From: an uncultured Planctomycetales bacterium
Lineage (GTDB): Bacteria > Omnitrophota > Gorgyraeia > Gygaellales > Profunditerraquicolaceae
Direction of reading: 5' to 3'
Assembly (NCBI GenBank): GCA_964545575.1
Contig: CAZJFL010000005.1
Location: forward strand, 8,617 to 72,616
DNA: 64,000 bases
Shown: positions 681-63,617 of the stretch, one piece after another
Numbering within the stretch: the first letter of the stretch is position 1
Layout of the letters: every line of letters starts with the position of its first letter
Notes under the pieces: generated by a model
Seen by the model: the letters and a program-made list of their open reading frames with translations, nothing else
Told to the model about the DNA's origin: nothing
Database searches by the model: none
Translations under genes and position numbers: made by a program

Positions 681-1496
681 GTGTTAACTAAACGTATAAT
701 CCCTTGTTTAGATATCAAAGACGGCCGGGTAGTAAAGGGTGTCAAATTCTTAGGGCTTCGGGATGCAGGCGACCCGGTAGAAGTAGCCAGGGTCTACGAC
801 CAGCAGGGCGCCGATGAGCTGGTGTTTTTAGATATCACTGCCAGTTTTGAGAACAGAAAAACGCTAGTTGAGCTGGTGGAGGCGATAGCTAAAAATATTT
901 TTATGCCTTTTACCGTCGGCGGAGGGATCAGGGATATAACCGATATCAGGGACCTCTTGAACGCCGGAGCGGATAAGGTATCGATAAATACGGCAGCGGT
1001 AAAATTGCCGGATCTGATCGCGGAGTCTGCGCTGAAGTTCGGCAGCCAGTGTATAGTTGTAGCCATAGATGCTAAGTCGGTTCAGAGTTCAGAGTTCAGA
1101 GTTCAGAGTAAAGAACCAAGAACTATGAACAATGAACCACGAAGTAAAACATGGGAAGTGTACATTAACGGGGGCAGGACGCCGACAGAGCTGGATGCCC
1201 TGGAATGGGCCAAGCAGGCGGCCAATCTGGGAGCAGGCGAGCTCCTACTTACCAGCATGGATTACGACGGCACCAAAGACGGCTATGACATCGGGCTTAC
1301 CAAGCAGATAACCGAGTTAGTGAATATTCCGGTGATTGCTTCCGGAGGCGCAGGCAAGCTGGAGCATTTTTACGATGTCTTTGCCCGCGCAGGGGCGGAT
1401 GCGGCGCTGGCCGCTTCTATTTTTCACTACCAAGAGTATTGCGTTAAAGAGGTAAAAGATTACCTGGAAGGAAAGGGAGTTCCGGTGAGGCTATGA
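681..1496 (+). CDS. hisF: imidazole glycerol phosphate synthase cyclase subunit HisF; GTG start; about 18-aa loop insertion built from heptamer repeats
   Basis: N-terminus [16 protein letters not shown]..., SGGAG and AALAASIFH motifs typical of HisF; 271 aa versus about 253 for canonical HisF. Confidence 0.9.
1080..1107 (+). repeat. (GTTCAGA)x4 tandem heptamer array inside hisF, followed by degenerate 7-nt units to about 1135
   Basis: Read directly: gttcaga gttcaga gttcaga gttcaga gtaaaga accaaga ...; encodes [14 protein letters not shown]... in a loop that is longer than in HisF homologs. Confidence 0.9.
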
Positions 1497-3873: not shown

Positions 3874-6075
3874 ATGGAAAGAAAACTTTTATATAAGACA
3901 ATCCTCATTTTAGCAGTGGTAGGCACCTGCGCCTATTTTACTTTCCCTTTGCAGAAAAGGATAAACTTAGGATTAGATTTAAGAGGGGGGATGCACCTTT
4001 TGCTAAAGGTCGATATGAGCAAGCTTTCCGATAAGGCCAAGGTCGATGCCGCCGATAGGGCAGTGGAGGTAATCAGGAACAGGATCGATGAGTTCGGCGT
4101 AAGGGAGACTTCCATCCAAAGGCAGGGAGAGGATGAAATTGTGGTGCAGTTGCCCGGCGTTACCGATAGGGGCCGGGCCATAGATATCATCGGCAAAACC
4201 GCGCTCCTGGAGTTTAAAATCGTTTCCACCGATAGCGATAAAATCAAACAGGCCATTGAAGGCAATCTGCCGGAAGGTTATGAATTGAAATATGCGCAGG
4301 AAGATAATGAACCCCTGCTTTTAGAAAAGCAGGCGGTTTTGACCGGGGATGCGCTTTCTAATGCGGCAGTGCGTTTTGACCAGAGCCAGTTTAATGAACC
4401 GCTGGTAGGATTAGAGTTTAATGCCGAGGGGGCAAAGAAGTTTGCCGAGATCACCGCTGCCAATGTAGGTAAGCGGCTGGCGATTGTCTTAGACGGAAAA
4501 GTCCAGTCTGCGCCGCGCATCAGGGAAGCCATACCCTCGGGGCAGGCAGTGATTCAGGGCCGTTTTGATATTCAGCAGGCGCAGGACCTGGCGATTATCT
4601 TAAGAGTAGGCGCGCTTCCCGCGCCGATGTATATAGAGGAAGAAAGGACGGTCGGCCCTTTATTAGGGCAGGACTCGATTAATAACGGAATCAAAGCCAC
4701 CCTTATCGGAGGCACCCTGGTATTTGTTTTTATGGCGGTATATTATCTTCTGGCGGGGATTATTTCCGACATTGCGCTATTTTTAAACTTACTGATGATT
4801 CTAGGGGGGTTAGGGATTTTACCGGTATTATTCCCCGGCGTATCCGCAACCCTGACTTTACCCGGCATAGCCGGTATTGCTTTATCTTTGGGTATGGCGG
4901 TAGACGCAAACGTACTGATTAACGAGCGTATCAGAGAGGAATTAAAGGCAGGCAGGCCTTTGCGTGCCGCTATAACTAACGGTTATGACCGCGCCTTCAG
5001 CGCTATTTTTGATTCTAACTTCACTACTTTGATTGCGGCCTTTCTCTTATTTCAGTTCGGCACCGGGCCGATCAGGGGTTTCGCCGTCACTTTGACCATC
5101 GGCCTTATCGCCAGCATGTTTACCGCAATCGTGGTCACGCGCACGATATTTGAGGTTCTCTTAGGGTTTGGTTGGTTGAAGTCTCTGCCGATGCTGCAGC
5201 TGATCAAGGAGACAAAGTTTGATTTTATCGGCAAGAGAAAGATTTTTTACGCGGTGTCTTTAATAGTCATCGCTATCGGTTTATTTTCGTTTTTTACCAA
5301 AGGCCATAAAGCCTACGGCATTGATTTTGCCGGAGGCCAGCTGCAGGAATATAGTTTTAAGTCCCCGGTTTCGGTAGACCGGGTGCGTGCAGCGCTTAAG
5401 GAATTGAACTTAGGCGACGCCTCCATACAGCAATTCAAAGAAAAACCCAACGTCCTGCTGATTAAGACAGTGGAAGATAAAAACCAGGCGATTACGGATA
5501 AATTAAAAGAGATATTCCCCGACCAGGATATACAGATTTTAAGGATCGAACGCGTTGGCCCGATAGCGGGGAAACACTTGAAGGACAAGGCAACTCATGC
5601 TTTACTCTGGTCTTTGATCGGGATCCTGATTTACGTAGGTTTCCGGTTCAAGCATATCAACTTTGCGATAGCCGGCATCATCGCGCTATTTCATGACGTT
5701 TTGGTAACCTTAGGGTTTTTGGCGTTTACCGGCAGGCAGATAGATTTATTAAGCATCACTGCCTTCCTGACCATTGTAGGCTATTCTATCAACGATACTA
5801 TCGTCATTTATGACCGCGTCAGGGAGAATGGCCGCCTTTACCGGAAACTCTCTCTTGCGGAATTAATAAACTTAAGCGTAAACCAGACCCTGGGCCGCAC
5901 CATCCTTACTTCCGGCGTCACCTTGCTGGTAGTCATTTCCATTTTATTCTACGGAGGAGAAGTCTTAAGTAACTTTGCTTTCGCGTTACTGGTAGGTTTT
6001 ATTTCAGGCGTTTACTCTACGGTTTATATTGCCTCGCCATTAGTTCTTGCCTGGGGCCGCAAAAGCGCGAAATAG
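3874..6075 (+). CDS. secDF: protein translocase subunit SecDF (fused SecD-SecF)
   Basis: 733 aa; SecD periplasmic domain (LGLDLRGGMHLLLKVD) and duplicated 6-TM SecD/SecF cores. Confidence 0.9.
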   Translation: MERKLLYKTILILAVVGTCAYFTFPLQKRINLGLDLRGGMHLLLKVDMSKLSDKAKVDAADRAVEVIRNRIDEFGVRETSIQRQGEDEIVVQLPGVTDRGRAIDIIGKTALLEFKIVSTDSDKIKQAIEGNLPEGYELKYAQEDNEPLLLEKQAVLTGDALSNAAVRFDQSQFNEPLVGLEFNAEGAKKFAEITAANVGKRLAIVLDGKVQSAPRIREAIPSGQAVIQGRFDIQQAQDLAIILRVGALPAPMYIEEERTVGPLLGQDSINNGIKATLIGGTLVFVFMAVYYLLAGIISDIALFLNLLMILGGLGILPVLFPGVSATLTLPGIAGIALSLGMAVDANVLINERIREELKAGRPLRAAITNGYDRAFSAIFDSNFTTLIAAFLLFQFGTGPIRGFAVTLTIGLIASMFTAIVVTRTIFEVLLGFGWLKSLPMLQLIKETKFDFIGKRKIFYAVSLIVIAIGLFSFFTKGHKAYGIDFAGGQLQEYSFKSPVSVDRVRAALKELNLGDASIQQFKEKPNVLLIKTVEDKNQAITDKLKEIFPDQDIQILRIERVGPIAGKHLKDKATHALLWSLIGILIYVGFRFKHINFAIAGIIALFHDVLVTLGFLAFTGRQIDLLSITAFLTIVGYSINDTIVIYDRVRENGRLYRKLSLAELINLSVNQTLGRTILTSGVTLLVVISILFYGGEVLSNFAFALLVGFISGVYSTVYIASPLVLAWGRKSAK

Positions 6076-6076
6076 C

Positions 6077-6096
6077 CCTGCCTGCCGGCAGGCAGG
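6077..6096. terminator. 20-bp perfect palindrome CCTGCCTGCCGGCAGGCAGG between secDF and mfd; hairpin without a U tract
   Basis: Sequence is its own reverse complement; flanked by aaaagcgcg ... gcgcaaaagcgc. Confidence 0.4.
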
Positions 6097-6116
6097 CGCA
6101 AAAGCGCTAGCGTAAT

Positions 6117-8003
6117 ATGTTTAAATCCCTCAAACTCTACACAGACGGCACGCTTGATTTAGAGGCTGTTATCGCTTCGCTGGTTGATTTCGGTTACAGC
6201 CGGCAGGAAAGGACAGCGCAGGAAGGAGATTTTTCCCGCCGCGGCGGAATCCTGGATATATTCCCCTTCACTTTTGAATTACCCATCCGCATAGAATTAG
6301 ACGGAGACAGGGTTGTTTCGATTAAAACATTTAATCCTGCTTCCGGGGAATCCCTCTGGGAACACAAGATGGTGATTGTCCTGCCGATAAAGAAAACCCA
6401 TGCCCTAAAGACAGCCACTTTTCAGGAAGATTTCCCCGTGGAGAACTTTGTTGACCTGGATATCGGCGATTATGTCGTGCATACCCAGCATGGCATCGGA
6501 AAATTCCTGGGTCTGGATAAAATAAAAATAAAAGATAAGCCTAAAGACCACCTGGTTATCGAATACGACCATCAGGAGAAATTATATGTTCCGGTGGAGG
6601 AGATGCATCTGGTGCAGAAGTATATTACTTTCGAGACCAGAAGGCCGAAGTTATACCGTTTAGGCAGCAAGGAATGGACCCGCACCAAGGAAAAAACCAG
6701 GAAAGCAATTCAGAAGTTTGCCTGGGAGATTTTGTCTTTACAGGCGATGCGCCTGAGCGTGGAGGGGTTCGCCTATGCTAAAGATACGGACTGGCAGAAA
6801 CAGTTCGAGGAGACCTTTGCCTTTAAAGAGACTCCTGACCAGGTCAGGGCAACCGAAGAGGTCAAGCGCGATATGGAATCAGCCAAGCCCATGGACAGGC
6901 TGCTTTGCGGCGATGTCGGCTATGGCAAGACAGAGGTAGCGATGCGCGCGGCATTTAAGGCGGTGATGGATAATAAGCAGGTAGCCTTTCTTGTCCCCAC
7001 CACTATTTTGGCCGAGCAGCATTATCAGAACTTTAGCCAGCGCCTCGGCGATTTTCCCTTAAGGGTAGAGATGCTTTCGCGCTTTAAGAGCCCCAGAGAG
7101 CAGAAAGAGATTAGCGCAGGTATCGCCTCCGGAGCCGTGGATATGGTCATCGGTACGCACCGGCTAGTGTCCGAGGATATAAAGTTTAAAGATTTGGGCC
7201 TGGTGATTATCGACGAAGAGCAGCGCTTCGGGGTAAGGACAAAAGAAAAGCTCAAGACCTTAAGGCTCAATACCGACGTGCTTACCCTTACCGCTACCCC
7301 GATTCCGCGCACTCTCTACATGAGCCTGATGGGGGCTAAGGATCTCTCGGCAATCAACACTGCGCCACAAAATAGGTTGCCGATCAAGACGGTTGTGGTA
7401 GAATATGATACAGACCTGCTGCGCCAGGCGATATTGCGGGAATTAGGCAGAAAAGGGCAGGTATATTTTGTCCATAACCAGGTGCAGGATATTGAAAAAA
7501 TAAAGGATAAAATTACCCGCATCCTGCCCCCCGAGGTGAGGATCGCCGTAGCGCACGGGCAGATGCCCGGTGCGGTGCTTGAGCAGGTGATGTCGGATTT
7601 CCTGAAAGCAAAAATAGATATATTGCTCTGCACCATGATCATCGAGTCCGGCATAGATATACCTAATGTCAATACCATTATTGTTAACAATGCCCACCAT
7701 TTCGGTTTATCGGACCTGCATCAGCTGCGCGGCAGGGTGGGCAGGTTTAACCGCCACGCCTACGCTTATTTTGTCATTCCGCGTCAGGAAGTCCTGGATA
7801 CAGATGCCCAAAAAAGATTAAACGCGATACAGGAATACGCGCATCTGGGCGCCGGTTTTAAGATTGCGATGGAAGACTTAGAGATCAGAGGCGCCGGAAA
7901 TCTCCTGGGGTTAGAGCAGCACGGGTTTATTGCTGCGGTGGGGTTCGATCTTTATTGCAGGTTATTAAGGGAAGCAGTAGGTACGCTTAAAAAGGTCGTC
8001 TAA
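6117..8003 (+). CDS. mfd: Mfd-like transcription-repair coupling factor, short form (628 aa): partial N-terminal region, RID/CarD-like domain and SF2 translocase; no D1/D3 or C-terminal D7
   Basis: GDFSRRGGILDIFP motif, GDYVVHTQHGIGKF (RNAP-interaction domain), Walker A GDVGYGKTEVA, DEEQRFGV, QLRGRVGR and TRG-like tail; protein ends about 30 aa after motif VI. Confidence 0.75.
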   Translation: MFKSLKLYTDGTLDLEAVIASLVDFGYSRQERTAQEGDFSRRGGILDIFPFTFELPIRIELDGDRVVSIKTFNPASGESLWEHKMVIVLPIKKTHALKTATFQEDFPVENFVDLDIGDYVVHTQHGIGKFLGLDKIKIKDKPKDHLVIEYDHQEKLYVPVEEMHLVQKYITFETRRPKLYRLGSKEWTRTKEKTRKAIQKFAWEILSLQAMRLSVEGFAYAKDTDWQKQFEETFAFKETPDQVRATEEVKRDMESAKPMDRLLCGDVGYGKTEVAMRAAFKAVMDNKQVAFLVPTTILAEQHYQNFSQRLGDFPLRVEMLSRFKSPREQKEISAGIASGAVDMVIGTHRLVSEDIKFKDLGLVIIDEEQRFGVRTKEKLKTLRLNTDVLTLTATPIPRTLYMSLMGAKDLSAINTAPQNRLPIKTVVVEYDTDLLRQAILRELGRKGQVYFVHNQVQDIEKIKDKITRILPPEVRIAVAHGQMPGAVLEQVMSDFLKAKIDILLCTMIIESGIDIPNVNTIIVNNAHHFGLSDLHQLRGRVGRFNRHAYAYFVIPRQEVLDTDAQKRLNAIQEYAHLGAGFKIAMEDLEIRGAGNLLGLEQHGFIAAVGFDLYCRLLREAVGTLKKVV

Positions 8004-8004
8004 G

Positions 8005-8922
8005 ATGAAGAAAATTCCTGCGATCATTTTATTATTTATAGCTTGGGGTTTGGGGTTTGGGATTTGGAATGCCCATGCCCAGGACAAAATCGTGGCTATT
8101 GTCAATAATGACATCGTCACCCAGAAAGACCTGGATGACTTTATCAATGTGATGCGCATCCAGTTATCAGAGGAGCTGCAAGGCAAAGAGCTGGAGAGTA
8201 AAATCCAGTCCATCAAGCTGGATTTGCTGGACAAACTTATCGAAGACCGCCTTATCCTGCAGGAGGCAAAGAAAGAAAAGCTCCGGCCTAACGAAGGCAT
8301 GATCAAGGGTAAAATTGAGGAGATGAAGAAGCATTATGATTCAGAAGAAGCGTTCAACAATGCCTTGGTCAAGCAGGGGCTGGTGCAGGCGGATTTAGAG
8401 GATAAGATCAGGGAGCAGCTCTTGATGCGCGGCATCGTAGAGAGCAAGGTAAAAGCGAGGATTTCGGTCAGCCCTAATGAAGTTATGGATTTTTACCAGA
8501 GGAACATGGAGAAATTCAAGCTCCCCGTGCAGCGCGAACTGGAAGTAATAAGCATGAAAAGCCAGAGCCTGGCCGGCGAGATTTTTAATGGTTTAAAACA
8601 AGGTAAGACCGTGCAAGAGCTTTTAGAGAAATATTCGCTTGTCACAGATAAGATTACCGCGATGCAAAACGGCCAGTTAAGAAAGGATATCGAAGATAAA
8701 ATATTCCAGCTTAATCTTGGCGAGTCAACTGACAGTATTCAGGTCGAAGACAATTATTATATATTTAAATTAGTCGCAATAATCCCTCCGCAGCAGCAAA
8801 CCCTCTCGGAAGTACAAGAAGAAATCCGTTCCTTCCTGCTGGAAGAAAAGATGCAGAAAGAATTAGCCAAGTGGATAGATGAGCTTAAGAAACGTTCCTA
8901 CATCAAAATCTACCAGAATTAG
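8005..8922 (+). CDS. SurA-like periplasmic chaperone / parvulin-type PPIase
   Basis: Signal peptide; SurA N-domain-like IVAIVNNDIVTQKDLD; parvulin-like middle domain; sits between mfd and pdxA as in the classical surA-pdxA-ksgA arrangement. Confidence 0.7.
   Translation: MKKIPAIILLFIAWGLGFGIWNAHAQDKIVAIVNNDIVTQKDLDDFINVMRIQLSEELQGKELESKIQSIKLDLLDKLIEDRLILQEAKKEKLRPNEGMIKGKIEEMKKHYDSEEAFNNALVKQGLVQADLEDKIREQLLMRGIVESKVKARISVSPNEVMDFYQRNMEKFKLPVQRELEVISMKSQSLAGEIFNGLKQGKTVQELLEKYSLVTDKITAMQNGQLRKDIEDKIFQLNLGESTDSIQVEDNYYIFKLVAIIPPQQQTLSEVQEEIRSFLLEEKMQKELAKWIDELKKRSYIKIYQN
8044..8071 (+). repeat. (TTGGGGT)x2-TTGGGAT-TTGGAAT heptamer array encoding the SurA signal-peptide core WGLGFGIW
   Basis: Read directly; same heptamer family as in the lptD and SPOR-protein signal peptides. 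Confidence 0.85.
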
Positions 8923-9856
8923 GGTTGGTATAACCATCGGCGATCCCTCAGGCATAGGCCCTGAGATAACCCTTAAGGCGATAGGTAAATTAAAGGGCAG
9001 GGCGGAGTTTGTTATCATCGGGGATAAATGGGTCATTAATAAGGTTCAGGGTTCAGGGTTCAGGGTTCAGGGTTTTAGGCTGGTAGACTTAAATAATGTA
9101 GCGCATAAAAATTTCTCTTTCGGTAAGATTAAAGCCGAATACGGGAGAGCTTCGGTTGAATATTTAGACAAGGCGCTGGAATTACTCCGGAAAAAAGAAA
9201 TAGATTGCCTGGTTACCTGCCCGATATCTAAGGAAGCAATTAATCTCGCCGGTTTCAAGGGGTTTTCCGGCCATACCGAATACCTGGCAAAATGCCTGGG
9301 GCTAGAAGATTTCGTAATGTTATTATTGAATAAAAAGTTAAAGTTTAGCCTGCTTACCAGGCACGTTCCTTTGAGGGAGGTGCCTTTTAAACTGGACAAA
9401 GAAAAAATAGGCAAGAATATAATTTTGACCATTCGAGCGCTTAAAGACCTGTTTGCCGTCAGGGATCCGCGCATCGTCGTCTGCGGCCTTAACCCGCATG
9501 CCTCGGATAACGGCGTGATCGGAGACGAGGAAAACAGGATGATTAAGCCGGCGCTGGCGAAATTAAGGATAAAGAATGTCTTCGGGCCGTATTCATCCGA
9601 TGTGGCTATCGCCGGGGCCCTGCATAGAAAATACGACTGCGTGATTGCTATCTATCATGATCAGGCGCTTATCCCCCTGAAGCTCTCGGGAAATAATCAG
9701 GGGGTGAATATGACCTTAGGGCTACCTTTTGTCAGGACTTCTCCTTTACACGGCACCGCTTTCGATATCGCCGGAAAAAATATCGCCTCATCCGATTCCT
9801 TGGTAGAAGCGATCAAGCTAGCCACTAGATGCGCCTTAAACCTAAAAAAAGCCTAG
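8879..9856 (+). CDS. pdxA: 4-hydroxythreonine-4-phosphate dehydrogenase PdxA (overlaps surA-like 3' end by 44 nt)
   Basis: GDPSGIGPEI, GHTEY, VCGLNPHA and TLGLPFVRTSPLHGTAFDIAG motifs. Confidence 0.85.
   Translation: MSLRNVPTSKSTRIRVGITIGDPSGIGPEITLKAIGKLKGRAEFVIIGDKWVINKVQGSGFRVQGFRLVDLNNVAHKNFSFGKIKAEYGRASVEYLDKALELLRKKEIDCLVTCPISKEAINLAGFKGFSGHTEYLAKCLGLEDFVMLLLNKKLKFSLLTRHVPLREVPFKLDKEKIGKNIILTIRALKDLFAVRDPRIVVCGLNPHASDNGVIGDEENRMIKPALAKLRIKNVFGPYSSDVAIAGALHRKYDCVIAIYHDQALIPLKLSGNNQGVNMTLGLPFVRTSPLHGTAFDIAGKNIASSDSLVEAIKLATRCALNLKKA
9044..9071 (+). repeat. (GTTCAGG)x4 heptamer array inside pdxA
   Basis: gttcagg gttcagg gttcagg gttcagg gtttt; encodes VQGSGFRVQGF in a variable region. Confidence 0.9.
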
Positions 9857-10614
9857 GCCAGAATTTTCTCACCGATAAAAACATCCAGAGGAAAATAATC
9901 CGCGCCTGCGCGTTTAATTCATCCGACTCCGTACTTGAGATAGGACCGGGAACCGGGGAATTGACCGCGCTGATCGCCGAGCAGGTAAATAGATTATACG
10001 CCGTAGAAATAGACCCGCGGTTATACGCCGGTTTAAAAGAGAGATTTCAGGGTTATTCTAGAGTCAAGATAATCAATGCCGACATCTTAAAAATTAACCC
10101 AAAAATTTACGCTAGAGGCAAATCTGCCAGGATCAAGGTCATTGGCAATATTCCCTACTATATTACTACGCCCATTATCGGGCATCTTTTTAAGTTCAGG
10201 GATAAAATAAAGCATATTTTTTTGACCGTACAGAAAGAGTTTGCCCAGAGGATCACCGCTTCCGCCGGCTCCAAAGATTACGGCTCTTTTAGCTGTTTCG
10301 TGCAGTATTATACAAAAGCCAAACAACTCTTTCTGATCAAGAAGACCAGTTTCTGGCCTGCGCCAAAAGTAGATTCCTGTTTTTTAAGTTTAGAAATAAA
10401 AGAGAAGCCCGATATCATCGTCAAAGATGAGGCGCGCTTTTTTAAAATTATCCGGCAGGCCTTTAACCAGAGGAGGAAGACCTTAAGGAATAGCCTGCGC
10501 GGGCTAATCGCTGCGGAAGAGCTGGAACATTTTTTTAGTAAGTATAGCATTAACAGCAAGATACGCCCCGAAGACCTCAGCTTAAAGGAGTTCGCGGATT
10601 TAAGTAACATCTAA
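9829..10614 (+). CDS. rsmA: 16S rRNA (adenine1518/1519-N6)-dimethyltransferase RsmA/KsgA
   Basis: LGQNFLTD...VLEIGPGTGELT...GNIPYYITTPI motifs. Confidence 0.9.
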   Translation: MRLKPKKSLGQNFLTDKNIQRKIIRACAFNSSDSVLEIGPGTGELTALIAEQVNRLYAVEIDPRLYAGLKERFQGYSRVKIINADILKINPKIYARGKSARIKVIGNIPYYITTPIIGHLFKFRDKIKHIFLTVQKEFAQRITASAGSKDYGSFSCFVQYYTKAKQLFLIKKTSFWPAPKVDSCFLSLEIKEKPDIIVKDEARFFKIIRQAFNQRRKTLRNSLRGLIAAEELEHFFSKYSINSKIRPEDLSLKEFADLSNI

Positions 10615-17812: not shown

Positions 17813-18870
17813 TGTTAGAGCAGTTAGAAAAGTTAGAAGCCCGTTATCAGGAACTGGAAAAGATACTTGCCTCTTATGAGGCTATTTCCGACAAAGAGCA
17901 GTACAATAAATACGCCAAAGAATTATCTCTTTTGAGGGAACCGGTATCTCTCTGGCGGGAATACAAGAAGGTCTCTCTAGAATTAGAGGGCCTGGAGGCG
18001 GTGCTTAAAGAAAAAAACGAAAAGGAATTATCGGAGTTGGCCCGGGAAGAACTGCCGAAACTGGAAAATAAAAGGCGCCAGATCCAAGAGAAACTTAAAA
18101 GTATCCTCAAAGGCGAAGATAAGGACGCCGGATGCGACGTAATCGTAGAAATACGGCCGGGCACCGGAGGAGATGAAGCAGGTTTATTTGCCGCCGACCT
18201 TTACCGCATGTATACCAAGTATGCGGCAAATAAAGGATGGGCCCAAGAGCCCCTGTCGGCCAATACCACCGAGGTGGGCGGTTTTAAAGAAATGCTCTTC
18301 AGTTTAAAGGGCAGGGATGTTTATAGGAGACTTAAGTTCGAAAGCGGGGTGCACCGCGTGCAGCGCGTGCCTACTACGGAAGCGCAGGGCAGGATACATA
18401 CCTCTACGGCGACGGTGGTAGTGCTGGTAGAGCCTGAAGAAGTGGAGATGGTGATTGAGCCCAAAGACTTGAGGATAGATACCTATCGCTCTTCCGGCCC
18501 CGGAGGCCAGCATATGCAAAAAACCGATTCGGCAGTGAGGATTACGCATATACCTACGGGGGTAGTGGTAGCCTGTCAGGATGAGCGCTCGCAATTAAAA
18601 AATAAAAATAAAGCGATGCGGATTTTAGGCGCCCGGATGCTGGATATGAAAAGGCAGGAGGAGTCCCGGAAGATCTCCGCAGCGCGCAAGTCCCAGATAG
18701 GCACCGGAGACCGCAGCGAAAAAATACGCACTTATAATTTTCCCGACCGGCGCGTAACCGACCATCGCATCAACTTTACCTCGCACCGGCTGGAAGCGAT
18801 ACTGGAGGGCGACTTAGACGAGCTTTCCGATGCCCTGATAAAGGCGTCCGAAGAGAAATCAAATGAATGA
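17812..18870 (+). CDS. prfA: peptide chain release factor 1
   Basis: PxT-type recognition region, GGQ motif ([24 protein letters not shown]). Confidence 0.9.
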
Positions 18871-19666
18871 GGCAGAGTTACTCTTTAGCGAGACATTAAA
18901 TTGCAGCCGCACGGATTTATACCTGAATAAGGCCTTGAGGCTAAATAGCGCCCAGGTTTCATTTATAGCCGGCGCCTTAAAAAGAAGATTATCCGGAGAG
19001 CCCCTAGAGTATATCTTAGGCAAGACCGAGTTTATGGGTTTAGAGTTTAAACTGGATGAAAATGTTTTTATCCCCCGGCCGGAGACGGAGCTTCTTGTAG
19101 AGAAGGTATTGGCATTGTTAGAGAACAGAGAACAGAGAACAGAGAACAGAGATATTTTGGAGTTGGGGACGGGTTCAGGATGTATTGCTGTATCTGTGGC
19201 AAAATATCTGGATAATGTCCGCATCACCGCAACGGATATTTCGGAAAAAGCCCTGCAGGTTGCTAGGATAAATGCCAGGATTAATCGCGTAGAAGATAAA
19301 ATCGTATTCTTAAGAAGTAATTTATTTGAGGCGATAAGCGATAAGCGCTATGCGCTATGCGTATGCAATCCTCCCTATATACCCAGCGCAGAAATTGATA
19401 ATTTGCAGCCTGAAGTAAGGCATGAACCGCGCCTCGCCCTGGACGGCGGAGAAGACGGTTTGGATTTTTATCGCCGGATGATTAAAGAGGCCGGGCAGTA
19501 CCTGGAAAAAGACAGTTATCTGATTATGGAGATGGGGTTCGGCCAGAAGGATGCCATAAAAGATATAGTTGGCGCATCAGGGATCTTTAAGACAAATAAG
19601 ATCATTAAAGATTATAGCGGTATAGACAGAATCATATTAGTCAGCAGAGAGGAAAGAGATGGATAA
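18863..19666 (+). CDS. prmC: release factor glutamine N5-methyltransferase PrmC/HemK
   Basis: [14 protein letters not shown] motif and NPPY catalytic motif; downstream of prfA. Confidence 0.85.
19121..19148 (+). repeat. (GAGAACA)x4 heptamer array inside prmC, an insertion of about 5 aa ([10 protein letters not shown]) relative to HemK homologs
   Basis: gagaaca gagaaca gagaaca gagaaca gaga read directly. Confidence 0.9.
19331..19365 (+). repeat. 7-nt periodic block GCGATAAx2-GCGCTATx2-GCGTATG inside prmC just before the NPPY codons
   Basis: gcgataa gcgataa gcgctat gcgctat gcgtatg read directly. Confidence 0.8.
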
Positions 19667-31688: not shown

Positions 31689-32879
31689 ATGAATAACAAG
31701 GGTGTGCATATAAGAACTTTCGGCTGCCAAATGAATGTCCGCGATTCGGAAGTCATCTGCGGGCTGCTAAAGAAAGAGGGGTATAAAATAGTAGACGAGC
31801 CGAAGAAGGCAGATATCCTAATTTTTAATACCTGTTCCGTCAGGCAGCATGCAGAAGAAAAAATTTGGTCGGCGTTAGGTAAACTCAGGGTTCATAGTTT
31901 AGCTAAGCCCACAATTGGGCTTATCGGCTGTATGGCACAGAATTACAAAGAGAAAATTTTTGAACGCGCGCCAAACGTTGATTTTGTAATCGGCCCATCC
32001 GATATTGCCAAGATTCCTGAGATGATTTCACGGTTCACGGTTCACGGTTCTCGGTTATCGCAATCAGGAAATAAACGAACACCGAACACCGAACACCGAA
32101 CACCGAGCGCTGAGCTCTTTGAGCGCAAAATCTGGGAAACTGATGGCGATATCCGGCCGGAAGAAATTTATCATACCGGATTTTACGAAGACAAAAATCA
32201 CGCCTATGTGGTCATTTCCGAGGGCTGCTCTAATTTCTGCTCTTATTGCGTAGTGCCTTATGTGCGGGGCCCTTTACATAACCGAAATCATAAGGATATA
32301 TTAAAAGAGATAGAAGGGGCAGTGGAGCAGGGTATAACCCGGATTACCCTTCTGGGGCAAAATGTTAGCGCTTATAAAGATAATCAAGTTGGGTTCGTGG
32401 AATTAGTTAAATTAGTTGAATTAGTGAAGGGGTTGGAGGAGTTTAGTTTTATTACATCTCATCCGAAAGATACATCGGCCGAGCTGTTTAAAGCCATGCG
32501 CGATAGGGGAAAATTAAAAAAATACCTGCATCTTCCGGTGCAGTCCGGATCAGACCGGATTTTGCAATTGATGAACCGCGGATACACCCGAAAATTTTAT
32601 TTAGGTTTAATAGATAATTATCGTAAAGTAGTAAAAAATGGCGTGTTGACTACGGATATAATTGTTGGCTTTCCGGGCGAGACCGAAGATGATTTCAAGG
32701 ATACATATAATTTAGTTAAAGAGGTACAATTTGACGCGGCCTATATTTTTAAATATTCTCCCCGGCCGAATACCCAAGCCGAAAAGTTAGGTGATGGTGT
32801 GCCTAAAAACGAGAAAGAGAGCAGGCACGCGCTTATACTAGAATTGCAGAAGAAGATATCTAAGAGTAAAAAATGTTAA
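31689..32879 (+). CDS. miaB: MiaB-like radical-SAM methylthiotransferase (tRNA-i6A37 2-methylthiolation); about 25-aa linker insertion; TRAM domain apparently absent
   Basis: MTTase N-domain cysteines (FGCQMN...NTCSVR...GCMAQ), radical SAM CSNFCSYCVVPY; only 396 aa; miaA two genes downstream. Confidence 0.75.
   Translation: MNNKGVHIRTFGCQMNVRDSEVICGLLKKEGYKIVDEPKKADILIFNTCSVRQHAEEKIWSALGKLRVHSLAKPTIGLIGCMAQNYKEKIFERAPNVDFVIGPSDIAKIPEMISRFTVHGSRLSQSGNKRTPNTEHRTPSAELFERKIWETDGDIRPEEIYHTGFYEDKNHAYVVISEGCSNFCSYCVVPYVRGPLHNRNHKDILKEIEGAVEQGITRITLLGQNVSAYKDNQVGFVELVKLVELVKGLEEFSFITSHPKDTSAELFKAMRDRGKLKKYLHLPVQSGSDRILQLMNRGYTRKFYLGLIDNYRKVVKNGVLTTDIIVGFPGETEDDFKDTYNLVKEVQFDAAYIFKYSPRPNTQAEKLGDGVPKNEKESRHALILELQKKISKSKKC
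32027..32061 (+). repeat. (TTCACGG)x3 + TTCTCGG + TTATCGC heptamer array inside the miaB-like linker
   Basis: ttcacgg ttcacgg ttcacgg ttctcgg ttatcgc read directly. Confidence 0.9.
32076..32103 (+). repeat. (CGAACAC)x4 heptamer array inside the miaB-like linker, 15 nt after the previous array
   Basis: cgaacac cgaacac cgaacac cgaacac cgag; encodes NTEHRTPNTEHRTPS-like low complexity. Confidence 0.9.
32399..32425 (+). repeat. 9-nt tandem repeat GAATTAGTT-AAATTAGTT-GAATTAGTG inside miaB-like (encodes ELVKLVELV)
   Basis: Read directly. Confidence 0.8.
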
Positions 32880-46943: not shown

Positions 46944-49088
46944 ATGCAAAAATATTTAAAATTATTTAATTTTGTTTTTTTAGTTTGGATTTTGATATTT
47001 GGATTTTGGATTTATGCATCTGCCCAGGCGCACAAAGACTCGATAATCATTAACGGCGATACCGTGGAATACTCCACAGAGAAAAATGAAGCTACCGCCA
47101 TAGGTAACATTGTGATAAATTACAAAGGCGCGATACTCACCTGTGATAAGTTAACGATCAATACCCTCACCAAAGAAGGTATTGCCGAGGGAAACGCAAA
47201 GCTAGAAGATGAAAGGGGGGTTATTACCGGTTCCAAGATCACTTATAATTTTAATACTAAGGCCGGTACGATCATTGACGCCGGTTTCCGGTCTAATCCT
47301 TATTTCGGCAAGGCCGAAAGGATAGAAAAGATAAACGATCGGGAGTTTATCTCGCTTGGCGGTTATATGAGTACCTGTAACTATGACCATCCGCACTACA
47401 GCATCGGGTCAAAAAAGATAGATTTCTTCCCCAAAGATAAAGTAGAGATTAAGGGCGCTGCGGTTCATCTTTTGGGTATCCCGATATTATATCTGCCCAA
47501 ATTTACCCATAGCCTGGTTGAGGATAGACCTAAAATAATGAATATACAGGTCTCTCCCGGCATGAGAAAAGAATGGGGCCCTTATCTGCTTACCGGCTGG
47601 CGTTATAACCTTACGGAAAACATTATGGGCAGGCTTTACCTGGATTACCGCTCGAAGCTGGGGGTAAGCGAAGGCGTGGGTTTTAATTATAGGTCGCCGG
47701 TGGGCAACGGAGACTTTAAGTTTTATTACACCCAGGAACATCCGCAAAACCATCCCGTAGAAGGCCCTGATGAGTTTGAAAGGTATTTTGCGCGCCTACG
47801 CCATAAATGGGATATAGACAAACGCACGAATCTCACCGTAGAGTATTATAAGATCGCCGACCAGGAAAGAAGGCTGCCTCTCTATCCGGGCGATTTATTA
47901 AAAGATTATTTTTACCGCGAATACGAAAAGAATTCCCAGCCGGTATCTTACGCCCTGCTTTATCATAATTTCAGTTATTCCAGCCTCGGCTTGCTTTTAC
48001 AGAGGCGCACTAACCACTGGTATGAACAGCTCAATAAAACCCCGGAGCTGTCTTATAGTTTGCCCAGCATACGTATCGGCAGCACCCCGTTTTATTTTGA
48101 AAACAATACTACCGCCGCAAACTTTGACAAAAAGGCAACCACCTACCCTTACACCAGCGATGATGTAACCGTATCCAGATTTGATACCAGCAATACCCTT
48201 TCCCTGCCGCTTAAGCTATTCTTTGTAGAGTTTACGCCCTTCGTAGCCGGACGCGAGACTGTCTATGATAAGGGCGCAGGCGGTTTTTCCGTTCCGAAAA
48301 GGACGATATTCTCTGGCGGGGCAAACTTAAGCACCAAAATTTTCCGCCTATTTGATGTTAAATCGGATTTCTTGGGGCTAGATATAAACGGCATCCGGCA
48401 CATCATTACGCCGATAGTAAAGTATGTCTATAACCACCGACCGACCATCTCCGCCAGCAAGCTTCAGCAGATAGATGCGATTGATTCTCTCGCTGCAAGC
48501 GAATATATCTCTTTGGAATTATCCAATAAACTGCAGACAAAGAGAGAAGGAAAGGCTGTAGACCTGGCGAACTTGCGCATAAACACGTTATACAATTTGA
48601 AGACTAAAGACGGCCCCGGCTCAAGTTTTTCCGATTTTTACCTGGATCTGGAATTGCGCCCTTATGCATGGCTGCGTATTAAGTCCGACGCTAGCTACGG
48701 CTATAAAGAAAAATACTTTAAGGAAGCCAACGTCAATTTATACGCTACCTTAGGTAAAGAAAGGTATCTAGGCGTCGGCCACCGGTATTTGAGGGGCGGC
48801 GGCAAAGAGATGACTTCGGAATTGGCCTGGCGGCTGAACCCTAAGTGGAAATTCAAGGTATACGAACGTTATCAATTTGCAGATTCCCAGAGCCGCGGAC
48901 TGATGGAACAGGAATATACATTAACCCGCGACCTGCATTGCTGGGAGACCGATATCAGTTATAATATCAGTAAAACAGACGGCCATACCCTGTGGTTTGT
49001 GTTCAGGTTAAAGGCCTTTCCGGAGCTTGAGTTTGGCTTCCAGCAGAGTTACCACCCGGATCAGTCAGGCTCCCAATCTAACCCTTAA
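46944..49088 (+). CDS. lptD: LPS-assembly outer-membrane protein LptD
   Basis: Signal peptide; OstA-like N-domain (IINGDTVEYSTEKNEATAIGNIVINYKGAILTCDKLTIN...); about 600-aa beta-rich C-terminal domain. Confidence 0.75.
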   Translation: MQKYLKLFNFVFLVWILIFGFWIYASAQAHKDSIIINGDTVEYSTEKNEATAIGNIVINYKGAILTCDKLTINTLTKEGIAEGNAKLEDERGVITGSKITYNFNTKAGTIIDAGFRSNPYFGKAERIEKINDREFISLGGYMSTCNYDHPHYSIGSKKIDFFPKDKVEIKGAAVHLLGIPILYLPKFTHSLVEDRPKIMNIQVSPGMRKEWGPYLLTGWRYNLTENIMGRLYLDYRSKLGVSEGVGFNYRSPVGNGDFKFYYTQEHPQNHPVEGPDEFERYFARLRHKWDIDKRTNLTVEYYKIADQERRLPLYPGDLLKDYFYREYEKNSQPVSYALLYHNFSYSSLGLLLQRRTNHWYEQLNKTPELSYSLPSIRIGSTPFYFENNTTAANFDKKATTYPYTSDDVTVSRFDTSNTLSLPLKLFFVEFTPFVAGRETVYDKGAGGFSVPKRTIFSGGANLSTKIFRLFDVKSDFLGLDINGIRHIITPIVKYVYNHRPTISASKLQQIDAIDSLAASEYISLELSNKLQTKREGKAVDLANLRINTLYNLKTKDGPGSSFSDFYLDLELRPYAWLRIKSDASYGYKEKYFKEANVNLYATLGKERYLGVGHRYLRGGGKEMTSELAWRLNPKWKFKVYERYQFADSQSRGLMEQEYTLTRDLHCWETDISYNISKTDGHTLWFVFRLKAFPELEFGFQQSYHPDQSGSQSNP
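46984..47011 (+). repeat. (TTTGGAT)x4 heptamer array (one TTTGATA variant) encoding the LptD signal-peptide core ILIFGFWI
   Basis: tttggat tttgata tttggat tttggat read directly. Confidence 0.85.
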
Positions 49089-62657: not shown

Positions 62658-63220
62658 CGCAGATATTAAGCAAATTACAAAATTTTCCCCTCGATAAGAA
62701 GAAAATAATAGCGATCCTGGCCTTTGTCGCAGTGCTTGTTTTCTTAGACGTGTCTTTTATAATCAAGGCACAGATTAAAAGCATAAAGAATGTTTCGGGA
62801 AAAGTCGCAAATTTAAAGAAAAAAATTGATACACTAAACAATGAGCTCGCCCTAATGAAGCAGGTGCAGGTAGAACGCAAACTTAAGGTGCCGCCCAAGG
62901 TAAAAAAAATAATTTCCGGAAGCGACCTTCCCGCTCTGATACAGGATATAGATGCGCTGGCAAAGAAGAATAACGTCAGAGTCACCCAGATAAAACCCGG
63001 TTGGAGCATGGGCGATCAAAAAATCGCCGTCGGTAATTTCTCCCCGGTTTCCATACTGCTGGAGATGAATTGTAATTACCATCAGTTCGGCAGCTTTATA
63101 AATGATTTAGAAAATGCGCAGAATTTTATAGCGGTTGAACAGATGGAGATCGTGCCGCTTGGGAATGATTGTTTTCAGCAAAAGATAAAGCTTCTTTTAA
63201 GGACATATGTTAAAAAGTAG
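62654..63220 (+). CDS. pilO: type IV pilus assembly protein PilO
   Basis: Single TM, coiled coil, 188 aa; position between pilN and pilP. Confidence 0.7.
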   Translation: MTQILSKLQNFPLDKKKIIAILAFVAVLVFLDVSFIIKAQIKSIKNVSGKVANLKKKIDTLNNELALMKQVQVERKLKVPPKVKKIISGSDLPALIQDIDALAKKNNVRVTQIKPGWSMGDQKIAVGNFSPVSILLEMNCNYHQFGSFINDLENAQNFIAVEQMEIVPLGNDCFQQKIKLLLRTYVKK

Positions 63221-63617
63221 GATTAGTTCGGGGTTCAGCGTTCAGCGTTCAGTGCTTTTCGTCATAGGTATTTTGTTATTTTCTTCATTGCTAAAGTTTT
63301 CTTTAGCGCAAAACGATTATGTTTATGACTCAAAAGGCAAGCGCGACCCTTTTATTCCTCTGGTAAGCCCCGCAGGTGTGTTGGTGAAATTAGATAAGGA
63401 TGAAGGGACGGTGGCGTCTGAGCTAAAAATCGAGGGTATCATCTTCGACAAAAACGGAGCCTCCTATGCCATTGTGGGCGCAAAAGTAGTCAGGGTCGGG
63501 GATTCAATCACCGACGGATGCCAAGTTTTAAAAATAGAACAGGATAAAGTTATTTTTATTAAAGAGGGCGTGCCTTTGGAGATCCATTTGAAGGAGGATA
63601 GCAATAATGCTAAATAG
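63207..63617 (+). CDS. pilP: type IV pilus assembly lipoprotein-like PilP
   Basis: Signal peptide, RDPFIPL motif, beta-rich C-terminal domain; immediately upstream of pilQ. Confidence 0.7.
   Translation: MLKSRISSGFSVQRSVLFVIGILLFSSLLKFSLAQNDYVYDSKGKRDPFIPLVSPAGVLVKLDKDEGTVASELKIEGIIFDKNGASYAIVGAKVVRVGDSITDGCQVLKIEQDKVIFIKEGVPLEIHLKEDSNNAK
63233..63253 (+). repeat. GTTCAGC-GTTCAGC-GTTCAGT heptamer array in the pilP 5' region (encodes GFSVQRSV)
   Basis: Read directly; same GTTCAGN family as in hisF and pdxA. Confidence 0.85.

Follow-up and report, generated by a model that had tools for sequence, protein, structure and literature searches.

The hisF gene in the window analysed here, a 64,000-nt stretch of contig CAZJFL010000005.1 from an uncultured bacterium of the Omnitrophota, contains a frame-preserving 60-nt insertion after the catalytic-face strand β5, which is predicted to encode a disordered surface loop of 20 residues. 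The insertion is built from 7-nt units. It is not an accident specific to hisF but belongs to a genome- and phylum-wide class of heptamer cassettes of ~30 nt, which occupy fixed insertion-tolerant sites in the Omnitrophota genes alaS, hisH, hisF, pdxA, prmC and miaB and in the signal peptide of surA. With modest confidence, we regard the hisF segment as non-adaptive repeat DNA, selfish or neutral, that undergoes concerted evolution, with reading frame, stop codons and loop tolerance acting as filters.

The heptamer-built loop of HisF

The product of the host gene matches PF00977 (His_biosynth) over residues 5–253 (E = 7.9e-85, 284 bits), and matches HisF structures in the PDB with E values of about 1e-101 to 4e-101. 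The catalytic residues Asp11 and Asp130 are invariant in an alignment of 44 orthologs. These sequence matches support the assignment of the product, over its full length, to HisF of the (β/α)8 family. The gene is located in the operon context hisA-(peptidoglycan-binding open reading frame, ORF)-hisF-hisI, an order that is syntenic in relatives.

The 5′ array starts after codon S133 (1077–1079) and is composed of four exact copies of GTTCAGA at 1080–1107, followed by GT at 1108–1109. Tandem Repeats Finder (TRF) reports a second period-7 stretch at 1111–1143, with 80% match. The first-pass annotation, made from the letters and their ORFs, had given the sequence, coordinates and translation of (GTTCAGA)x4 correctly (4.3 copies at 100% match by TRF), and its description of the segment as built of 7-nt repeats agrees with the period of both TRF stretches. 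Compared with short-loop orthologs, ~60 of the 75 nt at 1077..1151 are extra DNA. At the protein level, residues 135–157 of HisF face 3–5 residues in the solved structures (4evz, 1ka9), giving a net gain of 20 residues, and the shortest-loop Omnitrophota orthologs have 5 residues where the window HisF has 25. The earlier estimate of an ~18-residue insertion comes close to this value, and the 10–13 residues it gave for canonical HisF were too many. The complete AIDAK...WEVY segment spans 34 residues in the window and 14 in the shortest of the 120 best-scoring Omnitrophota orthologs.

In the AlphaFold model (44 orthologs; mean predicted local distance difference test score, pLDDT, of 84.9), pLDDT falls below 50 solely at residues 136–153, which sit between the strand 125–134 bearing Asp130 and the strand 157–162. 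The proposed position in a loop of the (β/α)8 barrel is in line with this model and with the ortholog and PDB alignments, and the restriction of low pLDDT to this segment agrees with the expectation, here a predicted one, that the loop is structurally tolerated. The array is not an assembly artefact, because it is part of 6,785 nt that are identical in an independent ENA contig (L172), and the window HisF protein was also assembled on three JGI contigs.

The second half of the insert runs in the opposite orientation. Its letters read GAACCAA, GAACTAT, GAACAAT, GAACCAC and GAAG, in which GAAC, the complement of GTTC, recurs every 7 nt, and this half is closer to the reverse complement of the unit than to its direct form. 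It had previously been read as a run of progressively diverged direct copies, a reading that gives way to the inverted GAAC-NNN units and to the fold of the segment. RNA folding of 1079–1138 gives a minimum free energy of −24.5 kcal/mol, compared with −8.4 ± 2.3 kcal/mol for dinucleotide shuffles (z = −7.15), and 0 of 200 shuffles equal it. DNA parameters yield the identical structure, with −14.5 kcal/mol and z = −6.67. The helices of the predicted hairpin are GGUUCA/UGAACC, GUUCA/UGAAC, AGUUC/GAACU and GUUC/GAAC.

Written as complements of the unit (TCTGAAC), the 3′ arm reads AAAGAAC, CAAGAAC, TATGAAC, AATGAAC and CACGAAG. A perfect 3′ complement is impossible in hisF, because (TCTGAAC)n would place TGA in frame every third unit. 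CAAGAAC and CACGAAG are the units with the TGA position in frame, and TGA is lost in both, while the two stem units with TGA out of frame retain TGAAC. Stop-codon avoidance thus accounts for two of the departures of the 3′ arm from a perfect complement. The fifth unit, AAAGAAC, adjoins the hairpin loop and has lost TGA though the frame did not require this loss.

Array sites and unit turnover

The window contains further arrays of the same kind (Table 1). Among perfect arrays of at least 3 copies with periods 4–12, period 7 is found exclusively, with 5 arrays vs 0.0 expected from 200 shuffles of the 64 kb. Self-similarity at lag 7 is likewise seen in 7 window regions, vs 0–3 at any other lag. 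All perfect window arrays are in frame within genes; an enrichment in coding sequence was rejected, since the coding fraction of 96% explains the genic location. The six strong window arrays all follow the consensus G-WW-C-A-S-N, and their peptides differ. The unit may bear some resemblance to a LexA/Cheo-box (GAAC-N4-GTTC), a tRNA T-loop and a Type III restriction site (CAGAG). The prmC array adds 4 residues compared with T. maritima HemK. Both the prmC and the miaB arrays correspond to extra loop or linker residues relative to solved structures, and the pdxA array lies in a length-variable region.

Table 1 Coordinates of the hisF insert, of the other heptamer arrays and of the palindrome in the window
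Feature	Positions	Strand	Basis
hisF (imidazole glycerol phosphate synthase cyclase subunit), host gene, 271 residues	681..1496	+	PF00977 and PDB matches
Loop-coding segment S133–T157, between β5 (AIDAK, Asp130) and the WEVY strand	1077..1151	+	Ortholog and PDB alignments, AlphaFold
Predicted hairpin of four short helices	1079..1138	+	RNA and DNA folding, comparison with L161
5′ arm, perfect array (GTTCAGA) x4.3	1080..1109	+	TRF (100% match, score 60), perfect-array scan
3′ arm, imperfect inverted array	1113..1144	+	TRF period 7, pairing with the 5′ arm, stop-codon logic, 7-periodic 3′ arms in relatives
Perfect 20-nt palindrome CCTGCCTGCCGGCAGGCAGG, within the 41 nt that separate the secDF stop from the mfd start	6077..6096		Pattern search
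Weaker array (TTGGGGT) x3.6, signal peptide of SurA-like gene (8005–8922)	8043..8067	+	TRF, lag-7 scan
(GGTTCAG) x4.6 in pdxA (8879–9856), encodes VQGSGFRVQGF	9043..9074	+	TRF, perfect-array scan
(AGAGAAC) x4.7 in prmC/hemK (18863–19666), encodes NREQRTENR	19120..19152	+	TRF, perfect-array scan
(TTCACGG) x4.3, 5′ array of the double array in a miaB-like gene (31689–32879)	32027..32056	+	TRF, perfect-array scan
(CGAACAC) x4.4, 3′ array of the miaB-like double array	32076..32106	+	TRF, perfect-array scan, comparison with L170
(GTTCAGC) x2.9, near the N-terminus of ORF 63207–63617	63233..63252	+	TRF

Orthologous loci from relatives provide a comparison for the insert. Four loci, with HisF identities to the window of 87% (L161), 80% (L164), 78% (L167) and 77% (L001), are syntenic with the window from recA and alaS to pdxA; more distant loci were added. 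The insert has the same length in L161, L164 and L167, and the L001 loop has 27 residues and no 3′ arm. The 5′ arm, perfect in the window, shows point changes in each of L161, L164 and L167, the last of which has a near-perfect 3′ arm, (GAACCAA)x3.4. L001 hisF carries a perfect array of another unit, (GTACAGA)x4. Such intact arms in the window, L167 and L001 do not fit the old, now decaying expansion that the first-pass annotation had proposed. Complementary inverted arms of unrelated sequence occur in hisF of L169 (GTTAGCC/GGCTAAC, −35 kcal/mol), L023 (GGCAGAT/ATCTGCC, z = −4.4) and L013, and a single array or two unrelated arrays occur in hisF of L001, L166, L168 and L110.

A single ancient microsatellite expansion of GTTCAGA, confined to hisF, decaying by point mutation and unconnected to the remaining genome, would account for the 5′ array as a textbook tandem repeat and for its point-mutated versions in relatives of 80–87% identity. 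Heptamer simple sequence repeats (SSRs) are moreover over-represented in bacteria, which is attributed to polymerase slippage (Mrazek 2007, as summarised in PMC4679880 and PMC4692102). However, the reverse complement is the better fit for the 3′ half, whose hairpin has z = −7, perfect arrays of different units occupy the same site across lineages, and the L167 3′ arm is nearly intact. In addition, the other window arrays share the unit consensus, and units follow the genome and not the locus. As a complete explanation this model is already contradicted, and we hold it to be highly improbable.

Loop lengths were surveyed in the 120 HisF homologs with the highest scores. Most of these are close relatives, and as the sequences are phylogenetically related, the counts are descriptive. 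The AIDAK...WEVY segment shows peaks at 14, 20/21, 27, 34 and 41 residues, and 79 of the 120 fall into two of the seven classes modulo 7. Many of these orthologs have no insert, and the insert peptide is hypervariable. The first-pass annotation had reasoned that orthologs sharing an equally long loop without repeat structure would point to an ancient structural feature. The long loop is indeed shared, the 34-residue class, with roughly 30 members, being the commonest among the 120, and repeat structure is present wherever the DNA was read, with period 7 in 5 of 5 genomes of this class (window, L161, the duplicates L162/L163, L164 and L167). MiaB behaves similarly, its segment lengths clustering around 52, 59 (n = 33) and 66/67 residues, and the +7 class corresponds in the DNA of L171 to (GTCACMA)x4. 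The 7-residue steps are visible only among deeper orthologs. Between the window and L161 or L170, orthologous arrays in the assembled contigs show no length difference, and independent assemblies are identical. Genic arrays are almost always ~30 nt, whereas intergenic arrays can be longer (L013, L171, L110). Overall, 32 lag-7 arrays were found in ~0.5 Mb of Omnitrophota-like DNA vs 10 in 1.5 Mb of other DNA, and other lags gave at most 5.

While the sites stay fixed, the units change. The alaS site (KEI, array, KELxYAIADH) contains perfect arrays of GTTCAGA in L161, GTTACGG in L164 and GTGTCAG in L088. The pdxA, hisH and surA signal-peptide sites likewise differ in unit between genomes; orthologous pdxA arrays have other units in L161, L001, L088 and L169, and in L164 and L167 the surA signal peptide is encoded with other heptamers at the same site. 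Unlinked genes of one genome often share the unit. In L001, hisF and pdxA carry an identical ~30-nt array, a unit is shared by alaS and pdxA in L088 and by alaS and hisF in L161, and in L171 the same unit occurs on opposite strands. With a rotation-invariant distance applied to ~30 arrays from 13 genomes, 25% of unit pairs from different loci of one genome differ by at most 1 base, vs 3–6% of pairs between genomes (permutation p = 0.0006), and orthologous sites of different genomes have units no closer than random pairs (p = 0.72). At the level of these sequences, the repeat unit tends to match the genome more than the locus.

That units can be homogenised while array length stays the same is directly evident in the miaB 5′ arm. 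Two adjacent units, TTCACGG TTCACGG in the window, are CTATCGG CTATCGG in L170, with the same three substitutions in each and no indel. The 3′ array of miaB is one unit longer in L170, again without an indel.

Several observations at these sites stand beside the main comparison. In L006, the alaS array site (~7,900–8,050 in locus coordinates) contains a ~100-nt in-frame palindromic insert within a 45-residue (135-nt) segment, with the peptide ...RHCEEPKATKQSN...ARNDE..., which makes the alaS site a general hot spot for repeats of different families. The metagenomic contig L110 (HisF 60% identical) carries (CTGATAA)n, that is TAACTGA, arrays of the type known from Beggiatoaceae and cyanobacteria, and a 10-copy ATGAACA array, located at 1058–1119 and 6794–6865, and its hisF loop is encoded by (ATGAACA)x4 followed by (AAATCCC)x3; in-frame hisF heptamer arrays are thus not confined to Omnitrophota. 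Among the matches listed, hisF matches of 1,050–1,200 nt, 300–450 nt above the usual length, occur in L021, L045, L055, L126, L143 and L157. Their hosts are non-Omnitrophota (Deltaproteobacteria, Methylococcaceae and Gammaproteobacteria), and the additional length points to a large insertion of a different type, such as an intein or a further domain. In L170, the closest MiaB relative, a large serine recombinase gene (Resolvase + Recombinase + Zn_ribbon_recom, 556 residues) lies at 110–1780 directly upstream of miaB and is absent from the corresponding window position.

Within the window, a second period-7 stretch of prmC was rejected as an insertion, since it adds no residues compared with the HemK structures. 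At 19331–19366 in prmC, just before the NPPY motif, GCGATAA occurs twice, followed by GCGCTAT twice. A T/G-rich period-7 array of TTTGGAT is found at 46965–47013 in the signal peptide of ORF 46944–49088. This array and the TTGGGGT array (8043–8067) are both located in the hydrophobic part of signal peptides, and the composition of heptamer units may be matched to the structural context.

Possible origins of the cassettes

For the heptamer cassettes we infer both the mechanism and the lack of function. In the non-adaptive account, repeat-driven DNA processes would create and homogenise the cassettes, namely strand slippage and short-tract conversion within and between arrays, and the inverted arm would arise from template switching or palindromic insertion. 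Selection would act only as a filter. The net change would have to be a multiple of 3 nt, hence three units (21 nt, 7 residues) per step, the units would have to be stop-free on the coding strand, and the host site would have to accept a floppy loop.

Several points weigh against this account. A gain of 21 nt in one step, in a gene such as alaS, is hard to obtain by simple slippage, which also fails to account for the sharing of units between unlinked loci; the test of this sharing itself rests on ~30 arrays collected by hand. Moreover, the hairpin changes slowly. It differs from L161 at 3 of 60 positions vs 18.4% in the remaining hisF (Fisher p = 0.007), and the 5′ arm differs from L164 and L167 at 4–7 of 30 positions, compared with ~53% at third codon positions outside. 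For the distant relatives these figures refer to the 5′ arm, because the GAAC phase of the 3′ arm in L164 is shifted by 3 nt and position-wise identity is meaningless there. The slow change relative to L161, L164 and L167 indicates that the insert is not drifting freely. It would fit either drive or a real nucleotide constraint, and leaves the absence of function unproven. Finally, complementarity of the arms recurs with unrelated sequences in at least 5 lineages, which could reflect selection for structure.

Alternatively, the hairpin could be a functional element in the hisF coding region and the peptide a by-product. It might act as an mRNA structure (translation, pausing or decay), as a repeated site for a heptamer-reading protein, or as a DNA cruciform. 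The strong and specific fold, nucleotide conservation above that of the remaining hisF between close relatives, and complementary arms of unrelated sequences in the window/L161/L164/L167, L169, L023 and L013 are in line with such a role, and it has been suggested that regulators which bind single strands recognise heptamer repeats (PMC4679880). Yet many Omnitrophota HisF proteins have no insert or correspond to one arm only (the 14-, 20- and 27-residue classes), and no fold is formed by the arrays in pdxA, prmC and alaS, which lack a second arm to pair with. The lone pdxA and prmC arrays were rejected as hairpins (z > 0), and the miaB double array forms a weak hairpin (z = −2.4). Rfam covariance models gave 0 matches at gathering thresholds over the whole 64-kb window, and the imperfections of the arms are explained by stop-codon avoidance and not by structure. 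A functional hairpin is therefore improbable in our view.

The palindromic element CCTGCCTGCCGGCAGGCAGG in the secDF–mfd spacer (Table 1) belongs to a family nested as 21-nt copies in the heptamer arrays of relatives, where the element has the form CCTGCCTG-N5-CAGGCAGG. In L161, the 21-nt CCTGCCTGTCCGGTAGGCAGG splits the pdxA array and lengthens the protein by 7 residues. It is absent from window pdxA and is one of only three indels of at least 6 bases that separate the window from L161 over ~10 kb of aligned genes. Excision of the 21-nt element restores an unbroken, in-phase heptamer array in L161 pdxA, L081 hisF and L164 pdxA; in the last it is nested three deep and three successive excisions are needed. 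The element-derived peptides CLSGRQA, LPAGRQ and PASPAGR recur in HisF and MiaB orthologs. Intergenic copies are found in the window (6077), L161, L164, L081 and L005, those outside the window adjoining or lying between other inverted repeats. Inside the window hisF insert there is no nested 21-nt palindrome, and the 21-nt pattern with a 7-nt loop has only weak matches in the window, the 20-nt copy being met by a looser pattern.

A second family is represented by the 13-nt palindrome GGGGACAGTCCCC, which forms two doublets in L173 MiaB (10213–10245 and 10410–10442). Its three reading frames give GQSP, GDSP and GTVP peptides, which are found in ~35 MiaB orthologs. About 4 kb upstream of these doublets, at 5806–6477, L173 has a gene for a Y1 transposase similar to the REP-associated tyrosine transposases (RAYTs; REP, repetitive extragenic palindromic), flanked by inverted copies of AAATAGGGACACATCCTATTT, a sequence that differs from GGGGACAGTCCCC and has a similar GGGACA core. 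The match of this gene to NF047646 scores 70 bits, below the curated cut-off of 80, and no RAYT homolog was found within the 64-kb window.

These families bear on the idea that the hisF insert and its kin are a miniature mobile element, resembling Rickettsia palindromic elements (RPEs), REP doublets forming hairpins (REPINs) or small dispersed repeats (SDRs), which is mobilised in trans and lands in or overwrites tolerant sites. The agent could be, for example, a Y1/RAYT-type transposase or an RNA intermediate. The insert is hairpin-shaped, identical ~30-nt arrays occupy unlinked genes of one genome (L001, L088), and the 21-nt palindrome of L161 pdxA, with its clean excision and the triple nest in L164, looks mobile. 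The GGGGACAGTCCCC doublets in L173 MiaB lie near a RAYT-like gene, and the RPEs offer a precedent for in-frame insertion (PMC10969869). On the other hand, the arrays occupy exactly orthologous positions with constant length across deep divergence, and close relatives show no array presence/absence polymorphism over ~10 kb. Terminal repeats and target duplications are lacking, conservation is limited to a 4–5-nt core, and the window contains no RAYT homolog, while the RAYT-like match in L173 stays under its curated cut-off. We consider a mobile origin unlikely.

It is also conceivable, if rather doubtful, that a trans-acting, genome-specific process writes or rewrites heptamer cassettes of ~30 nt, as well as 21-nt palindromes, at fixed sites of essential genes, always in frame-preserving quanta of 21 nt. 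Under such rewriting the repeat unit would therefore mark the genome and not the locus. Candidate agents are a sequence-specific nickase, a Y1 transposase, RNA- or DNA-primed templated synthesis and directed short-tract conversion.

Since the unit length is not a multiple of 3, the arrays might also be contingency loci, in which a gene is turned off or on by the frameshift that results when a single 7-nt unit is gained or lost (phase variation), and heptanucleotide repeats do drive phase variation in Haemophilus (PMC8262952). However, the hosts are core housekeeping genes (alaS, hisF, miaB, prmC, pdxA), the copy number is almost always ~4.3, the independent assemblies are identical, and all copies observed are in frame. 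The out-of-frame variants and the surface or accessory host gene that mark a phase-variable locus are not seen, and this explanation has next to no probability.

Apart from these features, the window is densely packed. It has about 64 genes, all on the + strand except two small ORFs, and is about 96% coding. Non-coding DNA of any size is confined to 49.4–50.4 kb and 53.6–54.6 kb, and ARAGORN found no tRNA genes within the 64 kb.

Significance and relation to known repeat systems

If the pattern is true genome-wide, a whole, poorly known phylum tolerates and renews selfish repeat DNA inside its core enzymes. Disordered loops would arise in 7-residue steps, in HisF adjoining a catalytic residue. 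The concerted 30-nt tracts at unlinked sites and the nested 21-nt palindromes would indicate how very small DNA, mobile or templated, is generated, a mechanism suspected since 2008 in cyanobacteria and, to our knowledge, not yet settled there. Omnitrophota would give many natural before-and-after pairs inside alignable genes. If instead the cassettes were rewritten in trans, they would represent very small elements, mobile or templated, of a new type that works inside coding sequence. On a practical level, cassettes would distort protein-length comparison, alignment and annotation of Omnitrophota metagenome-assembled genomes (MAGs), and could serve as fine-scale lineage markers.

The hisF array, with head-to-tail 7-nt units in at least 3 copies and above chance, fits the definition of bacterial heptanucleotide long simple sequence repeats (LSSRs). 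Described examples include the cyanobacterial short tandemly repeated repetitive (STRR) sequences, GGGAATC of Xanthomonas, GGGGAYT of Nostoc and TAACTGA of Beggiatoaceae (Mrazek 2007; PMC4692102; PMC4679880), and the described heptamer SSRs are overwhelmingly intergenic and are discussed as regulatory sites or G-quadruplexes. Common to both are few-copy 7-nt tandems over-represented relative to other periods, lineage-specific units and array pairs that are sometimes inverted; TAACTGA arrays themselves occur in L110. In contrast to the LSSRs, the arrays described here are in frame in housekeeping genes, have a nearly fixed size of ~30 nt, change protein length in ~7-residue steps, and share the unit between unlinked genes of a genome.

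The SDRs of Nostoc, reportedly described by Elhai and colleagues in 2008, are said to be hairpin elements of 21–27 nt that are often located within tandem heptamer repeats and nested in themselves. By this description, the 21-nt palindrome of the relatives is similar, with its clean excision, the restored heptamer phase and the triple nest in L164. The differences are the phylum, the exact size of 21 nt, and the coding location with +7 residues for each copy. A dispersed, self-nested hairpin in heptamer arrays is thus present in relatives (L161, L081 and L164), whereas the window hisF insert contains no nested copy.

RPEs are ~100–150 bp long and have a conserved family consensus and peptide (Ogata et al. 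2000, as reviewed in PMC10969869). Like them, the hisF insert is palindromic repeat DNA placed in frame in a metabolic gene, in a class whose members occupy unrelated genes and add an extra peptide at fold-compatible positions. It has the in-frame palindromic surface insertion in common with the RPEs, and neither their size nor their conserved consensus and peptide, being 60 nt long, built of heptamers, and sharing a 4–5-nt core with its kin. REP and REPIN elements are extragenic and mobilised by RAYT (Y1) transposases (PMC3116915). Similar features here are the short palindromes, the hairpin doublets, and the RAYT-like gene with flanking inverted repeats in L173. Unlike REPINs, the arrays in hisF, pdxA, prmC and miaB are all coding, and the window is without a RAYT.

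Coding palindromes are known from mitochondrial genes of Nematomorpha (PMC6649704), and tandem repeats of Borgs create disordered regions (bioRxiv 10.1101/2022.05.18.492195). In these systems, as here, inverted or tandem repeats are tolerated in coding sequence, evolve fast and encode disordered peptide. They differ in organisms and scales, and the 7-nt unit found here has the consequence that each array reads all three frames. Genic Borg repeat units are reportedly multiples of 3 nt.

Our literature search found no report of a heptamer-repeat pattern in Omnitrophota, and within the class delineated here the window hisF insert is an ordinary member. Among known systems, the nearest are the cyanobacterial heptamer repeats with their SDRs, which offer the closest parallel for the palindrome, and the RPEs.

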